Part shown: in pieces, positions 1 through 43,262 of the stretch
Numbering within the stretch: position 1 is the first letter of the stretch
How the letters are laid out: each line of letters opens with the position of its first letter
DNA from: Acidobacteriota bacterium
GTDB taxonomy: Bacteria; Acidobacteriota; UBA6911
Assembly: GCA_963664705.1 (NCBI GenBank)
Contig: OY761556.1
Location: 3,616,001-3,680,000 of the forward strand
DNA: 64,000 nt
Direction of reading: 5' to 3'
Made by a program: the position numbers and the translations under genes
The notes under the pieces: model-generated
Seen by the model: the letters and a program-made list of their open reading frames with translations, nothing else
Database searches by the model: none
What the model was told of the DNA's origin: nothing

Positions 1-96
1 CATGAATGAAGATCGAAAAAATCTCAACATAGGATTTTTGATTCTGGATATCGTGTGGCGATATCCAGTAAGCCAATCAACAAAAACATAACAGAA

Positions 97-807
97 TTAC
101 TTCCCCGTCGTTGTCACGAGACCGCGTTCGTATATTGTAATTTCCGGGGTCCGTCGGCTGCTGGTCTTTACAATGATCGTGCCATAATGATGTCCGGGCT
201 TTGCTTGAGCCTTTTGCGTCGCAATCAGCCGGATTTTCCTGCCATTGCTTCCCGGAACAGCCTCAAGCCTGACGTCAATGTTCGGATCCTTTGAAATCGC
301 GGAGAGAATCTTGATGGGCTTTGGTTCCGGAATAGTCATAATAATTTCCCGAATAACTTCTTTGCCCACCGGGATATTTTCAAAGAAGATTGCCGTATCC
401 GACATCGCAATTTCGGGATCAACGGTAGCCTTGATAGATAGCGTAATGCTCGGATTGCGCGGATCGTTGGTTGCGACCGCAATTCTTTTCAATATCGGCC
501 CGGAGAAACCATCCGTCTTTACACTTGCCTCAATCTGACCGCTTTTCCCGGCTGGAATTTTCTTCGCTGACAGCAAAGTGGCTTCGCATCCTCAGGAATG
601 CTCTATCCCCGCGATTTCGAGAGTGCCGCCCCCTTTATTGACAAACGTAAAAACCTGCTTGATAACATCCCCCTGTTGGACCGTCCCGGCATCTTTGCTG
701 ATATTATCGAACTGAATCCATGGCTTTCCCTGCCCGAACGCGCCCGCAAAGACCAGCATGCTGACAATAACGATCGCAGGAACTCGAGAGATTGGATTGT
801 CTTTCAA
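97..807 (-). CDS. Exported DUF1573/Ig-like domain protein, probable selenoprotein (in-frame TGA at 592-594 read as Sec, UGC motif), 236 aa
   Basis: ORFs 592-807 and 97-576 are in the same frame. The junction reads CAT TCC TGA GGA TGC GAA GCC ACT = H S * G C E A T, matching the DUF1573 SCGC motif. N-terminal signal peptide; TTG start. Confidence 0.85.
562..578 (-). promoter_or_regulatory. Putative bacterial SECIS hairpin (apical stem-loop)
   Basis: Minus strand CTTTGC-TGTCA-GCGAAG: 6-bp stem with one G-U, loop starting 19 nt after the UGA, G at loop position 2. Confidence 0.65.
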
Positions 808-825
808 TGTTTATGATTCCCAGGC

Positions 826-1794
826 TTAAGCGTTTGTGGCGGGATAAGCGCCCCACGTTTTTGCTTCGCGCACGCCTCGCAGAATGGCCATCGACATTGT
901 CTCTGCGGCCAGCGCTCCGATGATCCCTACTTCCACTTTTCTTCTTCCTCGCCAGGCGCCGGTGCTGACGGCGAAAATGGTATCGCCATCCCATGGCATG
1001 TGTGACGGGTACACGCATCGTGCCAATCCATCCTGTGCCATCTGGGCAACCTTCGTGCATTCGGCCTTGGTGAGGCTGGCGTTGGTCGCCACAACACCAA
1101 TCACCGTATTGCCCCGAAAAGGAAGCGGCAGACTACCCTTTCGAAGTTCTTCTATCGCGTCGATAAAACCCTTTCCATCCTTGCGACGCGCACCGGCAAT
1201 AGTCTTGCCGGTTTGGGGATCAATGACATTCCCGACCGCGTTCACCGCCACCAGCGCGCCAACCTTCAATCCCCCCGCAATTGTAACCGACCAGGAGCCG
1301 AGGCCGCCCTTCATGGCGGTCTCCGGTCCCATCATCTTCCCAACAGTTGCGCCGGCGCCGGCGCCAACGTTCCCTTCCGCGACCGGACCTGAATGCGCTG
1401 AACGCATTGCTTCATAACCGGCTTTGGCATCCGGCCTTATATGCGGATCGCCGACCAATAGATCGAATAGAATGGCACCACAGACAATCGGAACCCTGGC
1501 CACACCCGTATCAAACCCGCGGCCCTGCTCCTCGAGAAAGCGAGAGATTCCAGCCCCCGTTTCGAGACCAAAGGCGCTTCCACCGGAGAGAAAAATGGCG
1601 TCAATCTGATCCACGCTGTTCTCCGGTTTCAACAACTCTGTTTCCCGCGTGCCCGGGGCGCCTCCCCGCACGTCAACGCCGGCCACAAAGGGCTTGTCTG
1701 CCGTAATGACCGTGCACCCGGTTGGGCGCTTGCGCAGGGTGTGGTGGCCGACTAAAATTCCATCGATGTCGGTAAGACATGGCGTAGGATTCAT
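826..1794 (-). CDS. P1/S58 family peptidase (DmpA-like L-aminopeptidase/D-esterase)
   Basis: VDVRGGAPGTRET, LSGGSAFGL, GNVGAGAGA and GNT autoprocessing-site motifs; ATG at 1794 chosen over the TTG at 1806. Confidence 0.85.
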   Translation of the reverse strand: MNPTPCLTDIDGILVGHHTLRKRPTGCTVITADKPFVAGVDVRGGAPGTRETELLKPENSVDQIDAIFLSGGSAFGLETGAGISRFLEEQGRGFDTGVARVPIVCGAILFDLLVGDPHIRPDAKAGYEAMRSAHSGPVAEGNVGAGAGATVGKMMGPETAMKGGLGSWSVTIAGGLKVGALVAVNAVGNVIDPQTGKTIAGARRKDGKGFIDAIEELRKGSLPLPFRGNTVIGVVATNASLTKAECTKVAQMAQDGLARCVYPSHMPWDGDTIFAVSTGAWRGRRKVEVGIIGALAAETMSMAILRGVREAKTWGAYPATNA

Positions 1795-2103
1795 AGGGTC
1801 CCCCAAATGGTCTAAAGTCGAAGTTTTTCAAAATTTTGTGATTACCGCAACTCCTTATTCCGTAATTCCTGCTAAACTCCACAGGACACATCATGGACAT
1901 AGAGAATCCAGGCTTTTGGATTGCATTATTGACCGGAGTTTCGTGCCTCGGAATCTTTGTATGGTGGCTTTGGAAGGGCGGCAGGAAATCCCGGTAAAAA
2001 TCGGATAAAGCCCAAGGCAAAAAATGTGTATTGCCCCAACGTTTTTGGTAGATTACTGTGGGTTTGGGGCGATTTACTCTGAAGGCATCTAGGCATCTTT
2101 GGA

Positions 2104-4143
2104 ATGCAGACGACCAGGCATCATATTCTTTTAACTGGCGGTGGCACCGCCGGGCATGTTAATCCGGCACTTGCGATAGGGTCCGCCCTTGCTTCGCCTG
2201 ACACTCGCTTTTTATTCGTGGGCGTTCGCGGCAGAGTGGAAGAAGAGGTAGTGCCGCGCGAAGGCATTCCCATTAAGTACGTTCACGCCTCAGGATTCCC
2301 CAGCGGCATTTCCGCAGACCTGGTCAAGTTCGGAATTCATCTCTCAATCGGAGTTCTGCAATCCCTGCTGATTCTGGTCCGATTCCGCCCGGAGATCATC
2401 ATTGGAACCGGCGGTTATGTGTCCGCGCCGGTTATCATGGCTGCCGCCATCCTTCGTAAGCTGCACCTTTTGAACTCGCGGGTCTACATTCACGAACAAA
2501 ATGCCGTCCCAGGCAAGCTCAACCGGGTCATGGGCCGCTTTGCCCACCGCGTACTGGTAACCTTCCCGGAAACGCTGTCTTATTTCGCCGAAAGCGGAGT
2601 GGTGGTCGGGTATCCATTGCGGAGGCGAATCTCTCGCGTCAGCCGCGAAGAAGCGAGACAACGATCCGCCATCAAAATACCCGAGGGACGTAAAGTTATC
2701 CTGGTTTTTGGAGGATCCCAGGGATCCCGGACCATCAACCGGGCCTTGGTGGATGCGCTCCAGTATCTGCATCCTTACCGGGATAAGATATTTATCGTTC
2801 ACGGAGTAGGGTTGTTCAAGAGCGCCGAATATAATTCCACGGCCGATACGGAAGCGCGCCTGCGTAAGCTCTACAGCGAGCAACAGCGCAAGGAAATCGA
2901 TGGCTTTTATACATACCAGGCATTTTTTCACGATATCGAGCTTCTTTATGCGATGAGTGATCTCGTTGTGGCGCGGGCCGGCGCCGGAAGCCTGAACGAA
3001 ATTTCCGCCATGGGACTTCCCGCAATCATCATCCCGAAATCCAATCTGCCAGGCGACCACCAGGTCATGAATGCCAGGGCCATGGAACGGGCCGGAGGCG
3101 CAGAGCTCCTTTACGAACAAATCGCGCCGGTTGACGGGGCACTTTCCGAATGGGTTGATGGAAGGCTGCTCGCGGACAAGATCATGGCCCTGCTGCAAAA
3201 TGCATCCCGATTGCAGAAGATGCGGGAAAGCAGCGGCTCATTTCTCAACCAGGATGCGCTGATTCATATCGAACGGCTGGTAAGAGGAAATGAAATACCT
3301 GCCGGCCTGAATCCTTCTCCCAAGGACAGCGCGGCGCATAGCATTCCTCTTCCCGGGAACAGGGCTCTCTTGATGCTGCTGGAAAAAGCAGCGATCAAAC
3401 AAAAATCCGCCTACAAACCCGATGTCGTTATTGCACGGGCTGAAGATCAGGAATATTTGAGAAACAGGGCGAGCGCTCTCCTGATTCACCCCGCCTGGCA
3501 GGAGCGAAATGTCGGAGTCAAGCTCCTGGGCCTGCTTCATGCCAAAGACAAGATTCCGGCGCTGTTGACGCTATTCAATGACAGGAAGCGAACATCGCTG
3601 CTGAAAAGGGCTTTTGGAGGCGACTTCGAGCAGGTTGGGTTCATTCGGCGAAATGTGATCTCCTCTCTCGTACGACTAAACGAAATCACTCCCGATGTCG
3701 AAAATGCGCTACTGGCTGGAATGCAGGATCCTTATTATGAGGTTCGGGCGGAAGCGGCGCGGGCTACCGCCTTTTTTGGAGCCAGGCTCTCCTCTCCCGA
3801 CAAATTCATCGATGCGCTTCTGAGTCTTCTTACGGACACGACCATCGACGTGAGTGTGGCTGCAGCGGAGGCTTTGGGCAAAATCGGCAGGGAAACGGAT
3901 GCTTTGCCCGCTCTTCTTGGATTGTGGGACACGCGCTTTTGGAAAGTGCGTGCGGCTGTGCTTCGCGGCCTCTATTACCTGGTTGATCGAGGACAGGTCC
4001 GCCATCTGGAGCTTCTCGAGGCCCAGGTTCCCAAGTTTATCCTGACATCCACCGACTTTGCTCCACAGTTTGAAATCAAGGCAGCGTACCGACAACTTAT
4101 GGAATCTGTGTCCGGGAGAAAAGAAAAGAGACTCGCCCAATGA
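2104..4143 (+). CDS. murG: MurG-family undecaprenyl-PP-MurNAc-pentapeptide GlcNAc transferase fused to a C-terminal HEAT-repeat region
   Basis: GGGTAGHVNPA, GTGGYVS, HEQNAVPG, FGGSQGS, RAGA, HQVMNA motifs; the last ~230 aa carry HEAT-like repeats (DPYYEVRAEAARA, DVSVAAAEALGKI). Confidence 0.88.
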   Translation: MQTTRHHILLTGGGTAGHVNPALAIGSALASPDTRFLFVGVRGRVEEEVVPREGIPIKYVHASGFPSGISADLVKFGIHLSIGVLQSLLILVRFRPEIIIGTGGYVSAPVIMAAAILRKLHLLNSRVYIHEQNAVPGKLNRVMGRFAHRVLVTFPETLSYFAESGVVVGYPLRRRISRVSREEARQRSAIKIPEGRKVILVFGGSQGSRTINRALVDALQYLHPYRDKIFIVHGVGLFKSAEYNSTADTEARLRKLYSEQQRKEIDGFYTYQAFFHDIELLYAMSDLVVARAGAGSLNEISAMGLPAIIIPKSNLPGDHQVMNARAMERAGGAELLYEQIAPVDGALSEWVDGRLLADKIMALLQNASRLQKMRESSGSFLNQDALIHIERLVRGNEIPAGLNPSPKDSAAHSIPLPGNRALLMLLEKAAIKQKSAYKPDVVIARAEDQEYLRNRASALLIHPAWQERNVGVKLLGLLHAKDKIPALLTLFNDRKRTSLLKRAFGGDFEQVGFIRRNVISSLVRLNEITPDVENALLAGMQDPYYEVRAEAARATAFFGARLSSPDKFIDALLSLLTDTTIDVSVAAAEALGKIGRETDALPALLGLWDTRFWKVRAAVLRGLYYLVDRGQVRHLELLEAQVPKFILTSTDFAPQFEIKAAYRQLMESVSGRKEKRLAQ

Positions 4144-25563: not shown

Positions 25564-25926
25564 ATGCACGAATTAGGAATCGCACAGAACATCCTGCAAA
25601 TTGTTCAGCAGTCAGTGCCCGAGACCGGTGAAGCCAGTGTCCGGATCATTCGCATCCGGGTCGGCCAGCTTTCCGGAGTTGTCCCCGATTCGCTGGACTT
25701 CTGTTTCAGTGCCATTATCCATGACACCGAGATGAAGGATGCCAGGCTCGAGATCGAGCAGGTACCCCTGACATCCGAATGCAGGGACTGCCGGCAGCGG
25801 TTCCCGGTCAGCGAAATGGAGTTCTACTGTCCGGCATGCAAAAGTACCAACCTGGAACTGATTTCCGGCCGGGAGCTGGAGGTCGTGGAAATCGAAATGG
25901 CAGACGAAAGCGATGGGACGCCATGA
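25564..25926 (+). CDS. hypA: Hydrogenase maturation nickel metallochaperone HypA
   Basis: MHELGIA, two CxxC motifs, GREL. Confidence 0.95.
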   Translation: MHELGIAQNILQIVQQSVPETGEASVRIIRIRVGQLSGVVPDSLDFCFSAIIHDTEMKDARLEIEQVPLTSECRDCRQRFPVSEMEFYCPACKSTNLELISGRELEVVEIEMADESDGTP

Positions 25927-26579
25927 GCGTGATTACGATTGAGCGAAAGGTTTTGGAAAAGAACGAGGAGGTTGCCGGGCGCAACCGGGAGATTTTCCGG
26001 GAGCGCGGCATTGGGGTTCTCAATTTCGTCAGTTCTCCAGGGGCGGGCAAGACGACCATCCTGGAAACCACCTTCCAGAAACTGCGCGGACAGATGAAGT
26101 TTGCGGTTATCGAGGGGGATGTCCAAACCGACCTCGATGCCCAGCGAGTCGCCAAATACGGAGTCCCGGTCGTTCAGATCGTCACCCTTGGGGGTTGTCA
26201 CCTCGATGCGAAGCTCATCCAGGATGCCCTCGGCCAACTCGATTTGAATGGATTGGACCTGCTATTCATCGAAAACGTCGGAAACCTCGTGTGCCCCGCA
26301 AACTACGACCTCGGGGAAGCGCTGAAGGTTGTTGTCCTGAGCACCACGGAAGGGGATGACAAGCCGCTGAAATACCCCGCGATGTTCCTGAATTCTACGG
26401 TGCTGATCATCAACAAGATCGACCTTGTGCCCCACCTGCGCTGCGACTTGAATACTTTGAAAAGGAATGCACTCCAGATCAATCCATCTCTCCGGGTATT
26501 TGAGATCTCCTGCTTTACAGGTGAAGGGATCCCGGAATGGTGCGACTGGCTTAACAAGAAGGACTTTTCCGGACAGTGA
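25923..26579 (+). CDS. hypB: Hydrogenase nickel incorporation GTPase HypB
   Basis: SSPGAGKTT, IEGD, CHLDA, ENVGNLVCP, EGDDKP.KYP; ATGA overlap with hypA. Confidence 0.95.
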   Translation: MSVITIERKVLEKNEEVAGRNREIFRERGIGVLNFVSSPGAGKTTILETTFQKLRGQMKFAVIEGDVQTDLDAQRVAKYGVPVVQIVTLGGCHLDAKLIQDALGQLDLNGLDLLFIENVGNLVCPANYDLGEALKVVVLSTTEGDDKPLKYPAMFLNSTVLIINKIDLVPHLRCDLNTLKRNALQINPSLRVFEISCFTGEGIPEWCDWLNKKDFSGQ

Positions 26580-28858
26580 TTCGCCGAATGCACATCGCCC
26601 TCCGCGGCGCCGTACAGGGAGTAGGGTTTCGCCCTTTCGTGTATCGGCTTGCCTCGGAATTGAAGCTGCCCGGCTGGGTGTTGAATTCGACAGAAGGTGT
26701 GTTTATTGAAGTGGAAGGCGCAAAGGACCTTCTGGACACCTTCCTCCTTCGCCTGCAGAAAGAAAAACCGACTCCGGCCTTTATTCAAAGCCTCGAATTT
26801 TCCTACCTGGACCCCATTCACTTCGACGGCTTCGAGATACGGAACAGCGAGCAGACCGGGGCAAAGACAGCCCTCATCCTCCCGGACATTGCGACTTGTG
26901 GCGATTGCCTCCGTGAAGTATTCGATCCGGCTAACCGGCGCTATCGCTATCCGTTCACCAATTGCACCCACTGCGGCCCGCGGTTCACGATTATCGAATC
27001 CCTCCCCTACGACCGCCCGAATACATCCATGAAGTTTTTTGAAATGTGCCCGGACTGCCGCAGGGAATATGAAGACCCGTCCGATCGGCGATTTCATGCT
27101 CAGCCAAACGCCTGCCCCGTATGCGGTCCTGTCCCGGAAATGTGGGATGGAACAGGAAAGGTTCTGTCCAGACAGGACAATGCCATCATCGAAACGGTGG
27201 CGGCAATAAGAAGTGGAAAAATCGTGGCCATCAAGGGGCTTGGGGGATTCCACCTCGTTGCGGATGCCAGGAATACAGAAGCGGTGGAGCAGCTGCGCAA
27301 AAGAAAGCACCGCGAGGAAAAGCCCTTCGCCTTGATGTACCCCTCGCTCGAGCGAGTTCTGGACGACTGCGTTGTTTCGCCCTTTGAGGCCAGGCTCTTA
27401 TGCTCGGCCGAATCGCCCATCGTACTGCTCGAGCAAAAGGAAGCACGCGCCAGGACCCTATCGCCTGCGGTAGTCCCCGGAAATCCCTATCTCGGAGTGA
27501 TGCTTCCCTACACTCCCATGCATCATCTGATTATGCGGGACCTCGGGTTTCCCATCGTTGCCACCAGCGGAAACCTCTCCGACGAGCCCATCTGCATCGA
27601 CGAACGGGAGGCGCTGGCGCGGCTTTCGGCTATTGCGGACCTTTTCCTGGTTCACAATCGGCCCATTGTGCGGCATGTCGACGATTCCATTGTGCGCCTC
27701 GTGCTCGGCCGAGAGTTGGTATTGAGGCGGGCCAGGGGATACGCGCCGCTTCCGTTGCGCTGCAAGGGCCTGGAGCCGAACCTGCTGGCGGTGGGTGGAC
27801 ACCTGAAAAACACCATCGCCCTGTCGGTAGGGGATAATGCCTTCGTCAGCCAACATATCGGAGACCTGGAAAACAATGAGGCTTCCGAAGCTTTCCGTAA
27901 TGTAATCGGGAGCTTTCGCCGTCTGTATCAAGTCGACCCGGTCCGGGTTGTTTGCGACATGCACCCGGACTACATGTCATCGAAGCTTGCCCGGCAAATC
28001 GGACCACCCGTAATCGAGATACAACATCACTATGCCCATGTTGCCGCCTGCATGGTGGAGAATGAACTTGAAGGAGAGGTCCTGGGAGTAGCCTGGGATG
28101 GCACAGGGTATGGTCTTGACGGGACGATTTGGGGGGGTGAGTTCCTTCTCACCAACTCCACCAGCTTCACCCGCGTCGCCTCCTTCCGGAAATTCCGGTT
28201 GCCCGGAGGCGCAGCCGCCGTTCGAGAGCCGCGTCGCACAGCCCTCGGGTTGCTCTACGAGATTTATGGTGAACACGTTTTTGAAAAGGTTAACCTGGCG
28301 CCGCTCCACGCGTTCACGGAACAGGAACTCCCGGTGCTGGCCCAAATGCTTCAGAAAGGAATCCATTCTCCCTGGACGACCAGTGCCGGGCGCCTGTTCG
28401 ACGCAGTCGCTTCTCTTTCCGCCCTCCGGCAGAGAATGAAATTCGAGGGGCAGGCCGCCATGGAACTGGAGTACGTGGTCTCCCGGGAAGGGGTCGAACA
28501 AAGTTACCCGTTTGAGATCGGACAGGCCAATGATTCAGGAATGTCCCTTGACTGGGAAGCCCTGGTGCTCGCCATCATTCACGACGTTGAGCTCGGCACT
28601 CCGATTCCCATGATCGCGAGAAAATTTCACCTCGCACTTGGAGAGATGATCCTTGCCGTCGCCCGGCGTACCGGGAAAGAGCGTGTGGTACTGACCGGAG
28701 GTTGCTTCCAGAACAGGTTCCTCCTCGAACAAACAGTGAACAAGCTGGAGAAGGCCGGGTTCAGGGCGTACTGGCATCAGAGAATTCCGCCCAACGATGG
28801 AGGAATCTCGCTCGGGCAAATTGCCGCCGCCTCACGTATACTTAGGAGAGAACAGTAA
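26576..28858 (+). CDS. hypF: Carbamoyltransferase HypF
   Basis: G.VQGVGFRPFVY, zinc fingers, KGLGGFHL, QHHYAH, DGTGYG.DG, NDGGISLGQ. Confidence 0.96.
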   Translation: MIRRMHIALRGAVQGVGFRPFVYRLASELKLPGWVLNSTEGVFIEVEGAKDLLDTFLLRLQKEKPTPAFIQSLEFSYLDPIHFDGFEIRNSEQTGAKTALILPDIATCGDCLREVFDPANRRYRYPFTNCTHCGPRFTIIESLPYDRPNTSMKFFEMCPDCRREYEDPSDRRFHAQPNACPVCGPVPEMWDGTGKVLSRQDNAIIETVAAIRSGKIVAIKGLGGFHLVADARNTEAVEQLRKRKHREEKPFALMYPSLERVLDDCVVSPFEARLLCSAESPIVLLEQKEARARTLSPAVVPGNPYLGVMLPYTPMHHLIMRDLGFPIVATSGNLSDEPICIDEREALARLSAIADLFLVHNRPIVRHVDDSIVRLVLGRELVLRRARGYAPLPLRCKGLEPNLLAVGGHLKNTIALSVGDNAFVSQHIGDLENNEASEAFRNVIGSFRRLYQVDPVRVVCDMHPDYMSSKLARQIGPPVIEIQHHYAHVAACMVENELEGEVLGVAWDGTGYGLDGTIWGGEFLLTNSTSFTRVASFRKFRLPGGAAAVREPRRTALGLLYEIYGEHVFEKVNLAPLHAFTEQELPVLAQMLQKGIHSPWTTSAGRLFDAVASLSALRQRMKFEGQAAMELEYVVSREGVEQSYPFEIGQANDSGMSLDWEALVLAIIHDVELGTPIPMIARKFHLALGEMILAVARRTGKERVVLTGGCFQNRFLLEQTVNKLEKAGFRAYWHQRIPPNDGGISLGQIAAASRILRREQ

Positions 28859-28951
28859 AGAACGGGTACCGGCAAGACACACAATATCGCTTGTGCTCAA
28901 CAGGGCAAGCCGGCGCTCCGGATGGAGCAGGAAGCTTAAGGAGAATCCATT

Positions 28952-29209
28952 ATGTGCCTGGCAGTTCCGGGAAAGATCATCAGTATCGACGGCACCGATC
29001 CGGTGTTCCGCAGCGGCAAAGTCAGCTTTGGGGGAATCCACAAACAGGTGAACCTTGCCTATGTGCCGGAGGCCAAGGTCGGAGATTACGTCCTGGTCCA
29101 TGTCGGATTTGCCATCAGCACAATCGACGAGGCGGAAGCCGAAGAGGTGTTCGGGTATCTGCGCGAAATGGGTGAGCTGGCCGAACTGGAAGAAAGCGGC
29201 AACCAATGA
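28952..29209 (+). CDS. hypC: Hydrogenase chaperone HypC
   Basis: [19 protein letters not shown]. Confidence 0.96.
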
Positions 29210-30297
29210 AATTCATCGACGAATATCGCGATGCGAAGGCAGTGCAAAGTTATGCGCAGGCTCTGAAGCGCATCACTACAAAGCCCTGGACCATTATGGA
29301 AGTCTGCGGAGGGCAGACGCACTCCATTGTGAAGTTCGGCATCGATGAACTCCTTCCGTCCGATGTCACGCTCGTTCACGGCCCCGGCTGCCCGGTCTGT
29401 GTCACACCGGTGGAGTTGATCGAAAAGGCGATCGAGATCGCCTCCATGCCGGGCGTCCTGTTCTGCTCTTTTGGCGACATGCTTCGCGTACCGGGAATCT
29501 CCAAGGACCTGCTGACGGTCAAAGCCGCAGGCGGGGATGTGCGTATTGTCTATTCGCCGCTCGATGCGCTGAAGCTTGCCATCGACAACCCGAAGCGTGA
29601 GGTCGTCTTCTTTGCGGTTGGATTCGAAACTACGGCGCCGGCAAATGCCATGTCGGTTTTCCAGGCCAAGCAGCAGGGCATTAAAAATTTTACTCTCCTG
29701 GTTTCCCACGTCCTGGTTCCTCCGGCCATGGAGGCGGTTCTTTCTTCACCGGAAAATCGAGTCCAGGGGTTTCTGGCGGCAGGCCATGTATGCGCGGTCA
29801 TGGGCTACACGGAATATGAACCGATCGCGCAGAAGTATAAGGTTCCCATTGTTGTGACCGGGTTCGAACCGCTCGACATCATTCAGGGAATCTATATGTG
29901 CATTCACCAGCTCGAGGAAGGGCTTGCCGCCGTCGAAAACCAGTACTCCAGGTCCGTGCGAAGAGAGGGGAATCTTCCGGCACAGAAGCTGATCCGCGAG
30001 ATTTTCCATGTCGTGCCCCGAAAGTGGCGTGGGGTCGGAGAGATCCCCCAGAGCGGTTTGGGCCTCCGGGATGAATATTCAGAATTTGACGCAGAGCTGC
30101 GTTTCGGAGTGGCTCAACACACCGCCGATGAGCCGGCCGAATGCATGAGCGGGCTGGTCCTTCAAGGAATCAAGAAGCCGCACGAGTGCCCCGCTTTCGG
30201 CGCGCGCTGCACTCCGGAGCATCCATTAGGCGCCACCATGGTCTCCTCTGAGGGAGCCTGCGCGGCCTATTATCAATACCGACGAAGAACTCACTGA
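29206..30297 (+). CDS. hypD: Hydrogenase formation protein HypD
   Basis: [38 protein letters not shown]. Confidence 0.96.
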
Positions 30298-30309
30298 ACG
30301 GACCTTGCC

Positions 30310-31368
30310 ATGGATTCTGTTATAAAGCCGGGCGGATTTGTTTGCCCTATCCCGATTGAACAATATCCGAATGTACTGCTCGCGCATGGCGGCGGGGGCC
30401 GGCTGACCCAGCAACTCATCGAGAAGATGTTTATGCCGGCATTTGGGAACTCCCTGCTGGGATCGCGGCATGACGGCGCGGTCTTCCAGCTGCCGGGACA
30501 ACAGCTCGCCTTTACAACCGACTCTTATGTCGTCCATCCGCTCTTTTTCCCCGGCGGAGACATCGGGACGCTTGCCATCAACGGGACCGTCAACGATCTC
30601 GCCATGTGCGGCGCACGCCCTCTCTATCTGAGCGCCGGCTTTATTATTGAAGAGGGCCTTCCCATGGATACCCTGTGGAGGGTTGTGCAATCGATGGCCA
30701 GCGCCGCCCGCGAAGCGGGCGTGCAACTGGTCACCGGGGACACGAAGGTGGTAGACCGGGGCAAAGGGGATGGAGTCTTTATCAATACCGCCGGCATCGG
30801 TGTTGTCGAATCCAGGCAGCCGATTTCGCCCATAAGCGTGAAGCCCGGAGATGCCATCCTCCTGAGCGGCGATATTGGCAGGCATGGTATTGCCATCATG
30901 GCCGTCCGCGAAGGGCTGGAGTTTGAAAGCACAATCCTGAGCGATTGTGCCCCCCTGGCCGGCATTGTGTCCGCTCTGTTCTCCGGAGGAATTGAAGTCC
31001 ACTGCCTGCGGGATCTGACTCGCGGCGGACTTGCCAGCGCTCTCGTCGAAATAGCAGAAGCCGCTCATCTGCACATTGAAATTGAAGAAGCCGCCATTCC
31101 GCTCCTCGAGGATGTAAAAGGAGCCTGCGAAATTCTTGGCTTTGATCCTCTCTATGTTGCGAATGAAGGACGTTTCATCAGTTTCGCACCCGCGAACCAG
31201 GCCGAACACGCGCTGCAGCTTTTGCGAAGTCATCCTCTGGGGGCGCAGGCCTGCATCATCGGGACCGTGATGCATGACAACCCTGGACTCGTAACGATGC
31301 GAAGCCGCATTGGCGCCACCCGCGTCGTGGATACCCTCAGCGGAGAACAACTCCCCAGAATCTGCTGA
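30310..31368 (+). CDS. hypE: Carbamoyl dehydratase HypE
   Basis: [23 protein letters not shown]-terminal PRIC. Confidence 0.96.
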
Positions 31369-41218: not shown

Positions 41219-41363
41219 CGTCTATCTTTTCTCCAGGGCCATAATATTACCTGAGGTTATGGCAGAAGTGTGGCAGAAAGTGGGGAGGATCTTCTTGCTC
41301 CATGCTTCTTGCGCCTTGCTCCTTTTTTCTGGCTTCCACTTGCATTAAGATATGCATCCAATC

Positions 41364-43262
41364 ATGAGACACGTAATCGTAGGGACAGCAGGACACATTG
41401 ACCACGGGAAAAGCGCTCTGGTTCGGGCTCTGACAGGGGTCGATCCCGATCGGCTGAAAGAAGAACAACTTCGCGGCATCACGATCGACCTGGGATTTGC
41501 CCACCTGGACCTCGGAGATGTGCAGGTCGGTTTTGTCGATGTGCCCGGACACGAAAAATTCGTTAAAAACATGCTGGCTGGCGTCGGTGGAATCGATTTT
41601 GTTCTACTGGTGATCGCGGCCGATGAATCCATCATGCCCCAGACGCGGGAGCATTTCGATATCTGCCGGTTGCTCGGCGTTCGCACGGGAATCGTGGTAA
41701 TCAATAAAGCAGATCTGGTCGACCCGGAAATGCTGGAACTGGTTCGCGATGAGATTGCCGAGACAACGATCGGATCCTTTCTCGAAAACGCGGAGATCGT
41801 CACCGTCAGCTCCAGGACAGGCCAAGGGATTGAAAACCTGAAAAAGGTGATCCACGATCTGTCTCTTGCGATCCCCTCGAGGCCGTCCGACCGACTCCTG
41901 CGGCTGCCGGTTGACCGTTCGTTCAGCATCCGTGGGTTCGGCACAGTTGTGACCGGCACCCTCACCTCCGGCGAGATTCAAAAAGATCAGGAAGTCGAGT
42001 TAATCCCCGGAGGATTGACCACCAAGGTTCGCGGCCTTCAAGTCCACGGGAATATGACCGGTCGCGCCGTGGCCGGCCAGCGTACCGCGGTAAACCTTCA
42101 GGGCGTAGATTTGGATCAGGTGGAACGGGGCATGGTCATCACCGTCCCGCATCTTTTCCAGGCAACCCAAATTCTGGATGTACGTTTACAGCTTCTTCCA
42201 ACCGCGAAACCGCTGAAAAACCTGGTCAAAGTCAGGTTTCATCAGGGAACGCTGGAAATTCTGGCCCGCGTCGCCCTCATCGGGCAGGACACTCTTCTGC
42301 CGGGACAATCCGGGTACGCACAACTCCGGCTGGATGGACCGGTTTTCTGCCTCCATGGAGACGCGTTTATCATTCGGCAGTTCTCCCCGACGATCACGAT
42401 CGGCGGCGGAATCATTCTGCATCCGAACCCTTCCAAACACAAAAGCACCGACATGCAAACCCTCGCCGCTTTGCAGCGGCTGGACAAAGGGAATTTGCAG
42501 GAAAAAATCCCCGTATTACTGGAAGCCGATGTTCATCAGGCCATGGATCTCAATCGATTGAACTCCCTGCTGGGATTTCCCGAACCGCAACTCGTCAAAA
42601 TCTGCTCGGAGCTTGCGAAATCGGGACAGGTAGTGATGGTTCAGGCACCATCTCCCATTCTTGTCGTGCCGGCACTCATGGAGTCTCTGAAGAAAGAAGT
42701 GATTGCCCAGGTCACCGCCTTTCACAAGGAAAACGCCCTGCAAAAGGGGATATCCAAGGAAGAGCTCCGCAAGCGGATTTTTGACAACCTGCCCCTTGAA
42801 GTCTTCCGCTTCTGCCTCGACGCGCTCGTCGAAAAACGAAAGATCGCTTTCCAGGAAGACACCATTTCATTGTTTGGCCGCGAGGTTCAACTCACCGCGG
42901 AAGGACACCAGATCCGCGAAAAAATCGAAGCCATATTCCAGAAAGCGGGTTTTCAGCCTCCGGTATTTACCGATCTGCTGAGCCTGGTGGATGCGAATCC
43001 GGAAGAAACCAAAAGGATTTTCTTTTGGATGATCAAGGAAAAGATCCTGGTCAAAGTGGCCGAAGACGTCGTTTATCATCGGGCGACTATGGATAGCATC
43101 AAGCAACAGATTCGAAGCAAATTCACTCCGGGGAGCAAATTCGGCGTCGCTGACTTCAAGGAACTCTTCGATATCACGCGAAAGCATGCGATTCCGCTGC
43201 TGGAATACCTGGATCGCGACCGCTTCACTCGCCGTCTCGGCAATGACCGCGTACTGCTTTAG
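41364..43262 (+). CDS. selB: Selenocysteine-specific translation elongation factor
   Basis: [35 protein letters not shown]-terminal winged helix [13 protein letters not shown]. Confidence 0.96.

Follow-up and report, generated by a model that had tools for sequence, protein, structure and literature searches.

The gene at positions 97 to 807 on the minus strand of the window, the whole 64,000-nucleotide stretch of DNA analysed here, encodes a 236-residue DUF1573 protein whose single in-frame UGA is almost certainly read as selenocysteine (Sec), judging from its sequence and those of its orthologs. By Pfam domain and motif the gene belongs to the listed DUF1573/OS_HP2 selenoprotein family. This family is already known, and the outcome is an annotation gap and its correction, not a new system. 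Taken as a whole, sequence comparison and a structure model tip the balance slightly towards an exported protein of two Ig-like domains with a UGA-decoded Sec, in which Sec72-Gly-Cys74 is the likely site of thiol-disulfide exchange in the envelope.

The in-frame UGA and its alternation with cysteine codons

Features of the coding region, in window coordinates:

97..807, minus: 236-aa DUF1573 selenoprotein gene, with an inferred TTG start, a TAA stop, one in-frame TGA, a PF07610 match and 19 full-length orthologs
592..594, minus: in-frame TGA, inferred Sec72, aligned to the first Cys of CGC
586..588, minus: Cys74, the partner residue and sole Cys of the protein, Cys in 20/20 orthologs
574..576, minus: TTG (Leu78) within the SECIS stem, taken by gene callers as the start of a 159-aa fragment
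562..578, minus: putative upper hairpin of the bSECIS, CUUUGCU-GUC-AGCGAAG, with a possible weaker lower stem over 550-591

Re-read on the minus strand from 807 to 97, the frame comprises 236 codons and TAA and holds exactly one TGA (594-592), flanked as in IEHS-TGA-GC-EAT. This frame is shared, as the initial annotation had reported, by the 71-aa piece (807-592) and the 159-aa ORF (576-97, TTG start), with 71 + U + 5 (GCEAT) + 159 residues making up the 236. The joined protein matches PF07610 at 70.6 bits (cut-off 26.1) over residues 31-129, with the TGA in mid-domain, and PF22544 at 43.2 bits (cut-off 25.5). It combines the two marks of a DUF1573 selenoprotein, a PF07610 score above gathering and a UGC motif with Sec at the first Cys of CGC. 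The proposed read-through protein with an Ig-like DUF1573 domain and a U-G-C motif is supported. Scans for promoters and terminators at the gene remained at chance level (2 vs 2.7; 3 vs 3.8).

A search of 61 genomes (the gene's own and 60 relatives) returned matches in 40 of them. Among the 20 full-length two-domain orthologs (E <= 8e-52, the window gene included), the Sec column holds TGA in 14 and TGC or TGT in six, and the second Cys is invariant. Cys and TGA thus alternate at this column as had been anticipated, with neither Trp nor any other non-Cys residue among them. At the motif, 21 of the 30 loci compared from the 61-genome search carry TGA and nine a Cys codon, and the 73 genes compared in all divide into 51 with TGA and 22 with TGY; one locus from a contig search (L002, from 292 candidate stretches) duplicates L013, which lies in a genome of the same genus, and is left out of the counts. 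In the TGA alleles the frame past the TGA stays open over its full length, with no pseudogene-like decay; the exceptions in length are genes cut by contig ends and L007, whose C-terminus is slightly shorter. Short-read contigs from two runs of one sample show 0 differences over window positions 1-2000; since these contigs may be the source of the assembly, the 13 other orthologs with TGA are the better guard against a read or assembly error.

All of the Cys-allele orthologs (6/6) occur in selA-positive genomes, and their persistence there suggests that selection for Sec is weak. On a midpoint-rooted tree of 35 rows, in which any row taken from a database is necessarily a Cys form, there are 7-8 changes between Sec and Cys, at least three of them forced by well-supported branches. 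As judged from these sequences, Sec is widely kept yet replaceable by Cys, and it is not required in the clade. One same-locus ortholog (L008:1651-1659) has C-S-C for U-G-C together with a decayed hairpin and is sister (100/99) to a TGA allele, with which it forms a natural Sec/Cys pair.

The SECIS hairpin and the selenocysteine machinery

The hairpin at 578-562 comprises seven pairs, one of them G-U, and its loop starts 19 nt (as a 5-nt loop, UGUCA) or 20 nt (as a 3-nt loop, GUC) past the UGA, in agreement with the stem-loop originally described. The bSECIS consensus in the available text of PMC13188914 asks for a 3-9-nt loop, an upper stem of 4-16 bp, G at loop position 1-2 and a distance of 16-37 nt from the UGA; the hairpin conforms with a loop of 3 or 5 nt, 6-7 bp, G then U, and 19-20 nt. 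The energy rule of that text (<= -7.5 kcal/mol) is reached with the lower stem included (-10.5 and -12.0) but not by the upper hairpin alone (-6.4 and -7.4). Against shuffled sequences the stability is unremarkable (z = +0.50, -0.22, -1.30 and +0.69 in four windows), and in a 101-nt window another fold beats the hairpin. Hairpin stability alone is not beyond chance, whereas hairpin conservation is.

Across codons +6..+10, the 14 TGA alleles are identical at silent sites in 429/442 pairs (0.97) against 3630/8568 (0.42) in the rest of the gene; the sequences are related and the pairs non-independent, but both figures come from the same genes. Among 171 other 5-codon windows the highest value in the TGA alleles is 0.61, and the six Cys alleles show 20/42 (0.48) at codons +6..+10, equal to their background of 0.48. 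The stem is kept in 14/14 TGA alleles; L018 has a two-sided change (U-A to C-G) and the window gene a G-U pair, and the unpaired stem cells in the alignment all come from Cys alleles. Covariation within the clade is thin, with three cells changed on both sides, 41/500 shuffles scoring as high and one slid control scoring higher. Other subfamilies of the phylum have hairpins of unrelated sequence at the same place. Across the phylum (starts of 14 to 30 nt scanned), the loop begins 17-21 nt after the codon in 44/46 distinct TGA alleles vs 4/22 Cys alleles, and G occupies loop position 1-2 in 37/46 vs 10/22. TGA and Cys alleles cannot be told apart by folding energy, either among the orthologs (p = 0.20) or across the phylum (p = 0.078).

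A selB gene lies in the same window, as the initial annotation had pointed out:

41352..43262, plus: selB, one of two in the genome (TIGR00475, 386 bits; cut-off 242)

The rest of the machinery is found elsewhere in the genome, which carries two each of selA, selB, selD and tRNA-Sec, all above cut-offs; both tRNA-Sec genes have G-CCA ends and score 70.6 bits on RF01852. By the known bacterial pathway, SelB would bind the GUC-loop hairpin and deliver Sec-tRNA, a step about which we have very little doubt.

Among 251 genomes of the phylum, PF07610 is found in 140 and selA in 198. The best 150 of 256 PF07610 matches come from 112 genomes and include 32 that hold TGA, in 32/32 cases at the first Cys of the motif. 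Of these 112 genomes, 24/24 with a TGA allele have selA and 0/29 selA-negative ones have a TGA allele; another 59 (including G083, an unpublished genome) have selA and only Cys alleles among the matches listed. The Fisher p of 0.0004 for this co-occurrence overstates it, as kin are non-independent. Among the closer relatives, two genomes, G023 (71% complete) and G008 (76% complete), match with a paralog that bears TGA but lack a selA match, which we tentatively put down to genome incompleteness. The expectation that TGA alleles occur only in Sec-positive genomes holds across the phylum matches, with these incomplete genomes as exceptions to note.

A UGA read as Cys or Trp through a suppressor-type tRNA or a changed code, or one that truly ends translation of a split gene or a pseudogene, is highly improbable. 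ARAGORN does call a third tRNA, of 72 nt and with a UCA anticodon (G000:C1:1625651-1625722, minus), but its acceptor stem is broken and it adjoins what is presumably an rtcR/rtcB/rtcA-like RNA-repair cluster, whereas the true tRNA-Sec genes end in G-CCA. Moreover, TGA is otherwise an ordinary stop, both genome-wide (533/1733 long ORFs) and in 4/12 housekeeping genes checked within the window, and on these grounds an alternative code or suppressor tRNA was rejected. The TTG start 15 nt past the TGA and the database listing of the second half as a protein would fit a split gene; a stop at this point would, however, halve domain 1, and the second half would lack a signal peptide; that half is intact in the TGA orthologs.

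Beyond the window gene, a second and compact Sec cluster lies at G000:C1:3068672-3079894 (L036, L039, L043), the first set being scattered. It contains selB2 (34% identical to the window selB), selA2, a 95-nt tRNA-Sec and a 545-aa selD2, which is Cys-type and has a Cys-rich N-terminus and a C-terminal CMD domain, along with an ArsM-like ORF with an in-frame TGA (DAWST-U-IAGAL), a LysR-like gene and what we take to be methyltransferase/corrinoid-like genes. The two SelB/tRNA-Sec pairs might read different SECIS types; two selA matches occur in 5/61 related genomes. A second DUF1573 gene (L033, G000:C1:6757007-6757747, plus) carries its in-frame TGA at 6757229 within the motif U-A-C; it begins with a signal-like sequence and has a hairpin of its own with the loop GGA, and its relatives with U-G-C adjoin cytochrome c554, rhodanese and YeeE/YedE sulfur-transport genes. 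Long ORFs that are paralogous to one another and share the motif H-U-S-x-C, at least seven in number (TGA on G000:C1 at 2633983, 3995510, 4763923 and 6758420, plus, and at 2646040, 3553263 and 6243067, minus), presumably resemble UGSC-type selenoproteins. A genome-wide screen for TGA read-through yielded 2067 candidates, mostly noise. The genome looks selenoprotein-rich.

Predicted export and fold, and proposed function of the U-G-C motif

Features of the protein and its upstream neighbour:

733..807, minus: predicted signal peptide, residues 1-25, with probable cleavage after A-F-G, based on hydropathy and ortholog N-termini
421..717, minus: domain 1, DUF1573, with a PapD/ASH-type Ig fold that carries U-G-C (Pfam; model pLDDT 95.8)
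112..417, minus: domain 2, a second Ig-like beta-sandwich in the model, with no Cys and no Pfam match
826..1806, minus: peptidase S58 gene, upstream, 18 nt from the start, not adjoining the orthologs examined

The protein is predicted to be exported by a cleavable signal peptide of about 25 residues, as had been proposed. Its N-terminus has one hydrophobic stretch (11-residue Kyte-Doolittle peak of 2.99 from residue 11), and the orthologs start with M-K/R and a hydrophobic run at the same place. A model of the mature protein (47-row alignment, U read as C; pLDDT 95.8, pTM 0.79) is all-beta with two domains. Domain 1 matches the Ig domain of 4lk4 (Z 12.4, rmsd 1.9, 97 aligned), and the second Ig-like domain of the initial annotation appears in the model as a beta-sandwich that matches an SbsC S-layer domain (Z 9.7, rmsd 2.8, 85 aligned). 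A sequence search of the PDB gave only a chance match to ribosomal L12 (E 0.35). U72 and C74 are the only Sec/Cys residues of the protein; in the model, U72 sits on a turn between strands 38-45 and 49-53 (model numbering), and C74 opens the second strand.

In seven genomes of the genus, this one included, the upstream side has a divergent murG-type gene and the downstream side a PMT_2 glycosyltransferase gene, with Pfam covering 5/7 of the PMT_2 genes. Across the 50/84 flanking ORFs scanned (1.5 kb flanks), the neighbourhood gives no redox or metal clue. The MurG-type glycosyltransferase of the window (2104-4143, 679 aa) has C-terminal HEAT repeats and is followed by mraY-like and murJ genes, and a hydrogenase maturation cluster (hypA, hypB, hypF, hypD, hypE) lies at 25564-31368. 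On the far side of the downstream PMT_2 gene, just left of the window, are genes for topoisomerase VI B and A (L001:5755-8560).

At least one C-[GSA]-C occurs in 122 of the top 150 relatives. Among 44 mostly long relatives, fusions are to thioredoxin-like/AhpC-TSA domains (3), cytochrome c (1), peptidase C39 (5), OmpA (1) and a secretion tail (1), and the rest have Ig-type repeats only. A two-CxxCH cytochrome tail is fused to DUF1573 (U/C-G-C) in seven of the loci compared (L023, L025, L026, L027, L029, L085 and L086), three of them with TGA. Several cytochrome-tail loci adjoin O-antigen-ligase-like or ABC-2 genes.

We give an even chance to envelope thiol-redox exchange by Sec72-Gly-Cys74, a reading that we place ahead of metal binding and of a structural staple. 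It is preferred because of the fusions to thioredoxin-like and cytochrome c domains, in themselves a weak clue, the position of U72 and C74 as sole Sec/Cys residues on a turn, and the potential of the CGC peptide. For the free CGC tripeptide, the available text of a preprint (bioRxiv 10.64898/2026.01.27.701630) reports disulfide exchange in vitro and a potential of -0.167 V, similar to that of PDI. Following export and predicted cleavage after residue 25, domain 1 would present U-G-C on the turn between two strands that the model predicts. Sec72 would then attack a disulfide or oxidised thiol of an envelope protein, Cys74 would resolve the resulting bond by closing a strained Se-S ring, and Sec72-Cys74 might be recycled by a partner of the thioredoxin-like or cytochrome c kind. 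Domain 2 may serve as a binding surface or spacer, and Sec may speed a chemistry in which Cys can replace it.

Several findings weigh against a redox role. Most long relatives are plain domain repeats, and the commonest fusion, to peptidase C39 (5/44), is not to a redox partner; the folds matched belong to domains for scaffolding, adhesion and chaperoning that have no known redox activity; and the neighbours (murG-type, PMT_2 glycosyltransferases, topoisomerase VI) are not redox genes. The protein also falls outside the thioredoxin fold with CxxC, having an all-beta model, CxC spacing and no thioredoxin Pfam match; the listed fold matches include no thioredoxin, which excludes nothing.

Binding of a soft metal (Cu(I), Hg, Ag or As(III)) by U-G-C, which would make the selenoprotein an envelope metal chaperone or sink, is unlikely. 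The model offers an exposed chalcogen ligand pair on a small beta-sandwich, and His70 stands two residues before U72 in the window protein, but this His is present in only 2/14 TGA orthologs and the flanking ORFs scanned include no copper or metal-resistance family. A PCuAC score came from a single relative, one with 10 repeats, the window protein has no PF04314 match, and no copper chaperone is among the listed fold matches, which again excludes nothing. We think it improbable that U-G-C has a structural part, either as an Se-S or S-S staple or as a link between subunits, in a surface protein for scaffolding or adhesion where Sec brings no catalytic gain. The tandem ASH/PapD scaffold and S-layer Ig domains of the fold would suit such a role, as would the relatives, which are often pure repeats and in some cases carry an OmpA or secretion-tail domain, and the recurrent Sec/Cys interchange on the 35-row tree. 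A plain staple would not, however, repay the upkeep of a SECIS with 97% silent identity and of many separate hairpins in the phylum, and CXC rings are strained and make poor staples.

If disulfide exchange is indeed the function, an Ig-fold, CxC-type class would be added to envelope redox chemistry. Tentatively, DUF1573 proteins with U/C-G-C could form a widespread Ig-fold relay for envelope thiol-redox reactions, wired to c-type cytochromes and thioredoxin-like partners, and could be among the commonest hidden selenoproteins of Acidobacteriota.

Comparison with the OS_HP2 family and related folds

The initial annotation was unsure whether this family is listed among selenoproteins, and comparison with the published lists settles that it has been since 2007, as OS_HP2. 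In the available texts, OS_HP2 is one of six new families in Olavius symbionts in 2007 (PMC1976440), is equated with pfam07610 and given the motif UxC in 2008 (PMC2398784), appears as 'DUF1573 domain-containing protein, UGC' among 71 predicted families in 2022 (PMC9312934) and is listed again in 2026 (PMC13188914). The openly available main texts searched hold no function test of DUF1573/OS_HP2; the Bacteroidetes papers have DUF1573 in tables only, and the deep-Sep main text does not mention it. For a family predicted some 19 years ago, such a test would have a convenient object in a small, well-folded two-domain member whose natural alleles within one genus include both Sec and Cys forms.

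Database matches to this branch are largely truncated: 17/28 are 155-159-aa second halves that start at the TTG inside the SECIS, and the full-length matches are Cys forms. NCBIfam NF041425 (OS_HP2) scores the window protein at 66.5 bits and its mature form at 67.1, below the curated cut-off of 100, so that the model would not name this branch. With this model, 47/47 alignment members match at E <= 0.001, three close Cys relatives reach 73-85 bits, and a class-level TGA relative (L024) passes at 127.5. The branch is thus present in databases as fragments and missed by the NCBIfam model, and Sec use in these genomes is under-counted.

As a whole, the model matches the uncharacterised 2QSV from Porphyromonas gingivalis, with two tandem Ig-like domains in 220 residues (Z 11.8, 196 aligned; Foldseek E 1.3e-7); it differs from the window protein in domain angle (rmsd 11.7), with 11% identity and no sequence match. 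Domain 1 shares its fold with the ASH/PapD-like domains of Hydin, CEP192 and OCRL and the VesB Ig domain (Z 10-12, rmsd 2-2.6), which are interaction or scaffold modules, and a shared fold shows no function. The closest known system is OS_HP2 itself, which, in the available literature, was found first in Olavius symbionts and ocean metagenomes, whereas the window gene comes from an Acidobacteriota-related genome; it is listed as predicted, not experimentally verified (PMC9312934), and these texts do not mention export. As far as those texts describe it, OS_HP2 and the window gene are alike in Pfam domain, in UGC at the same Cys, in a downstream bSECIS-type hairpin and in having Cys homologs, and the window protein differs in its second, Cys-free Ig domain.
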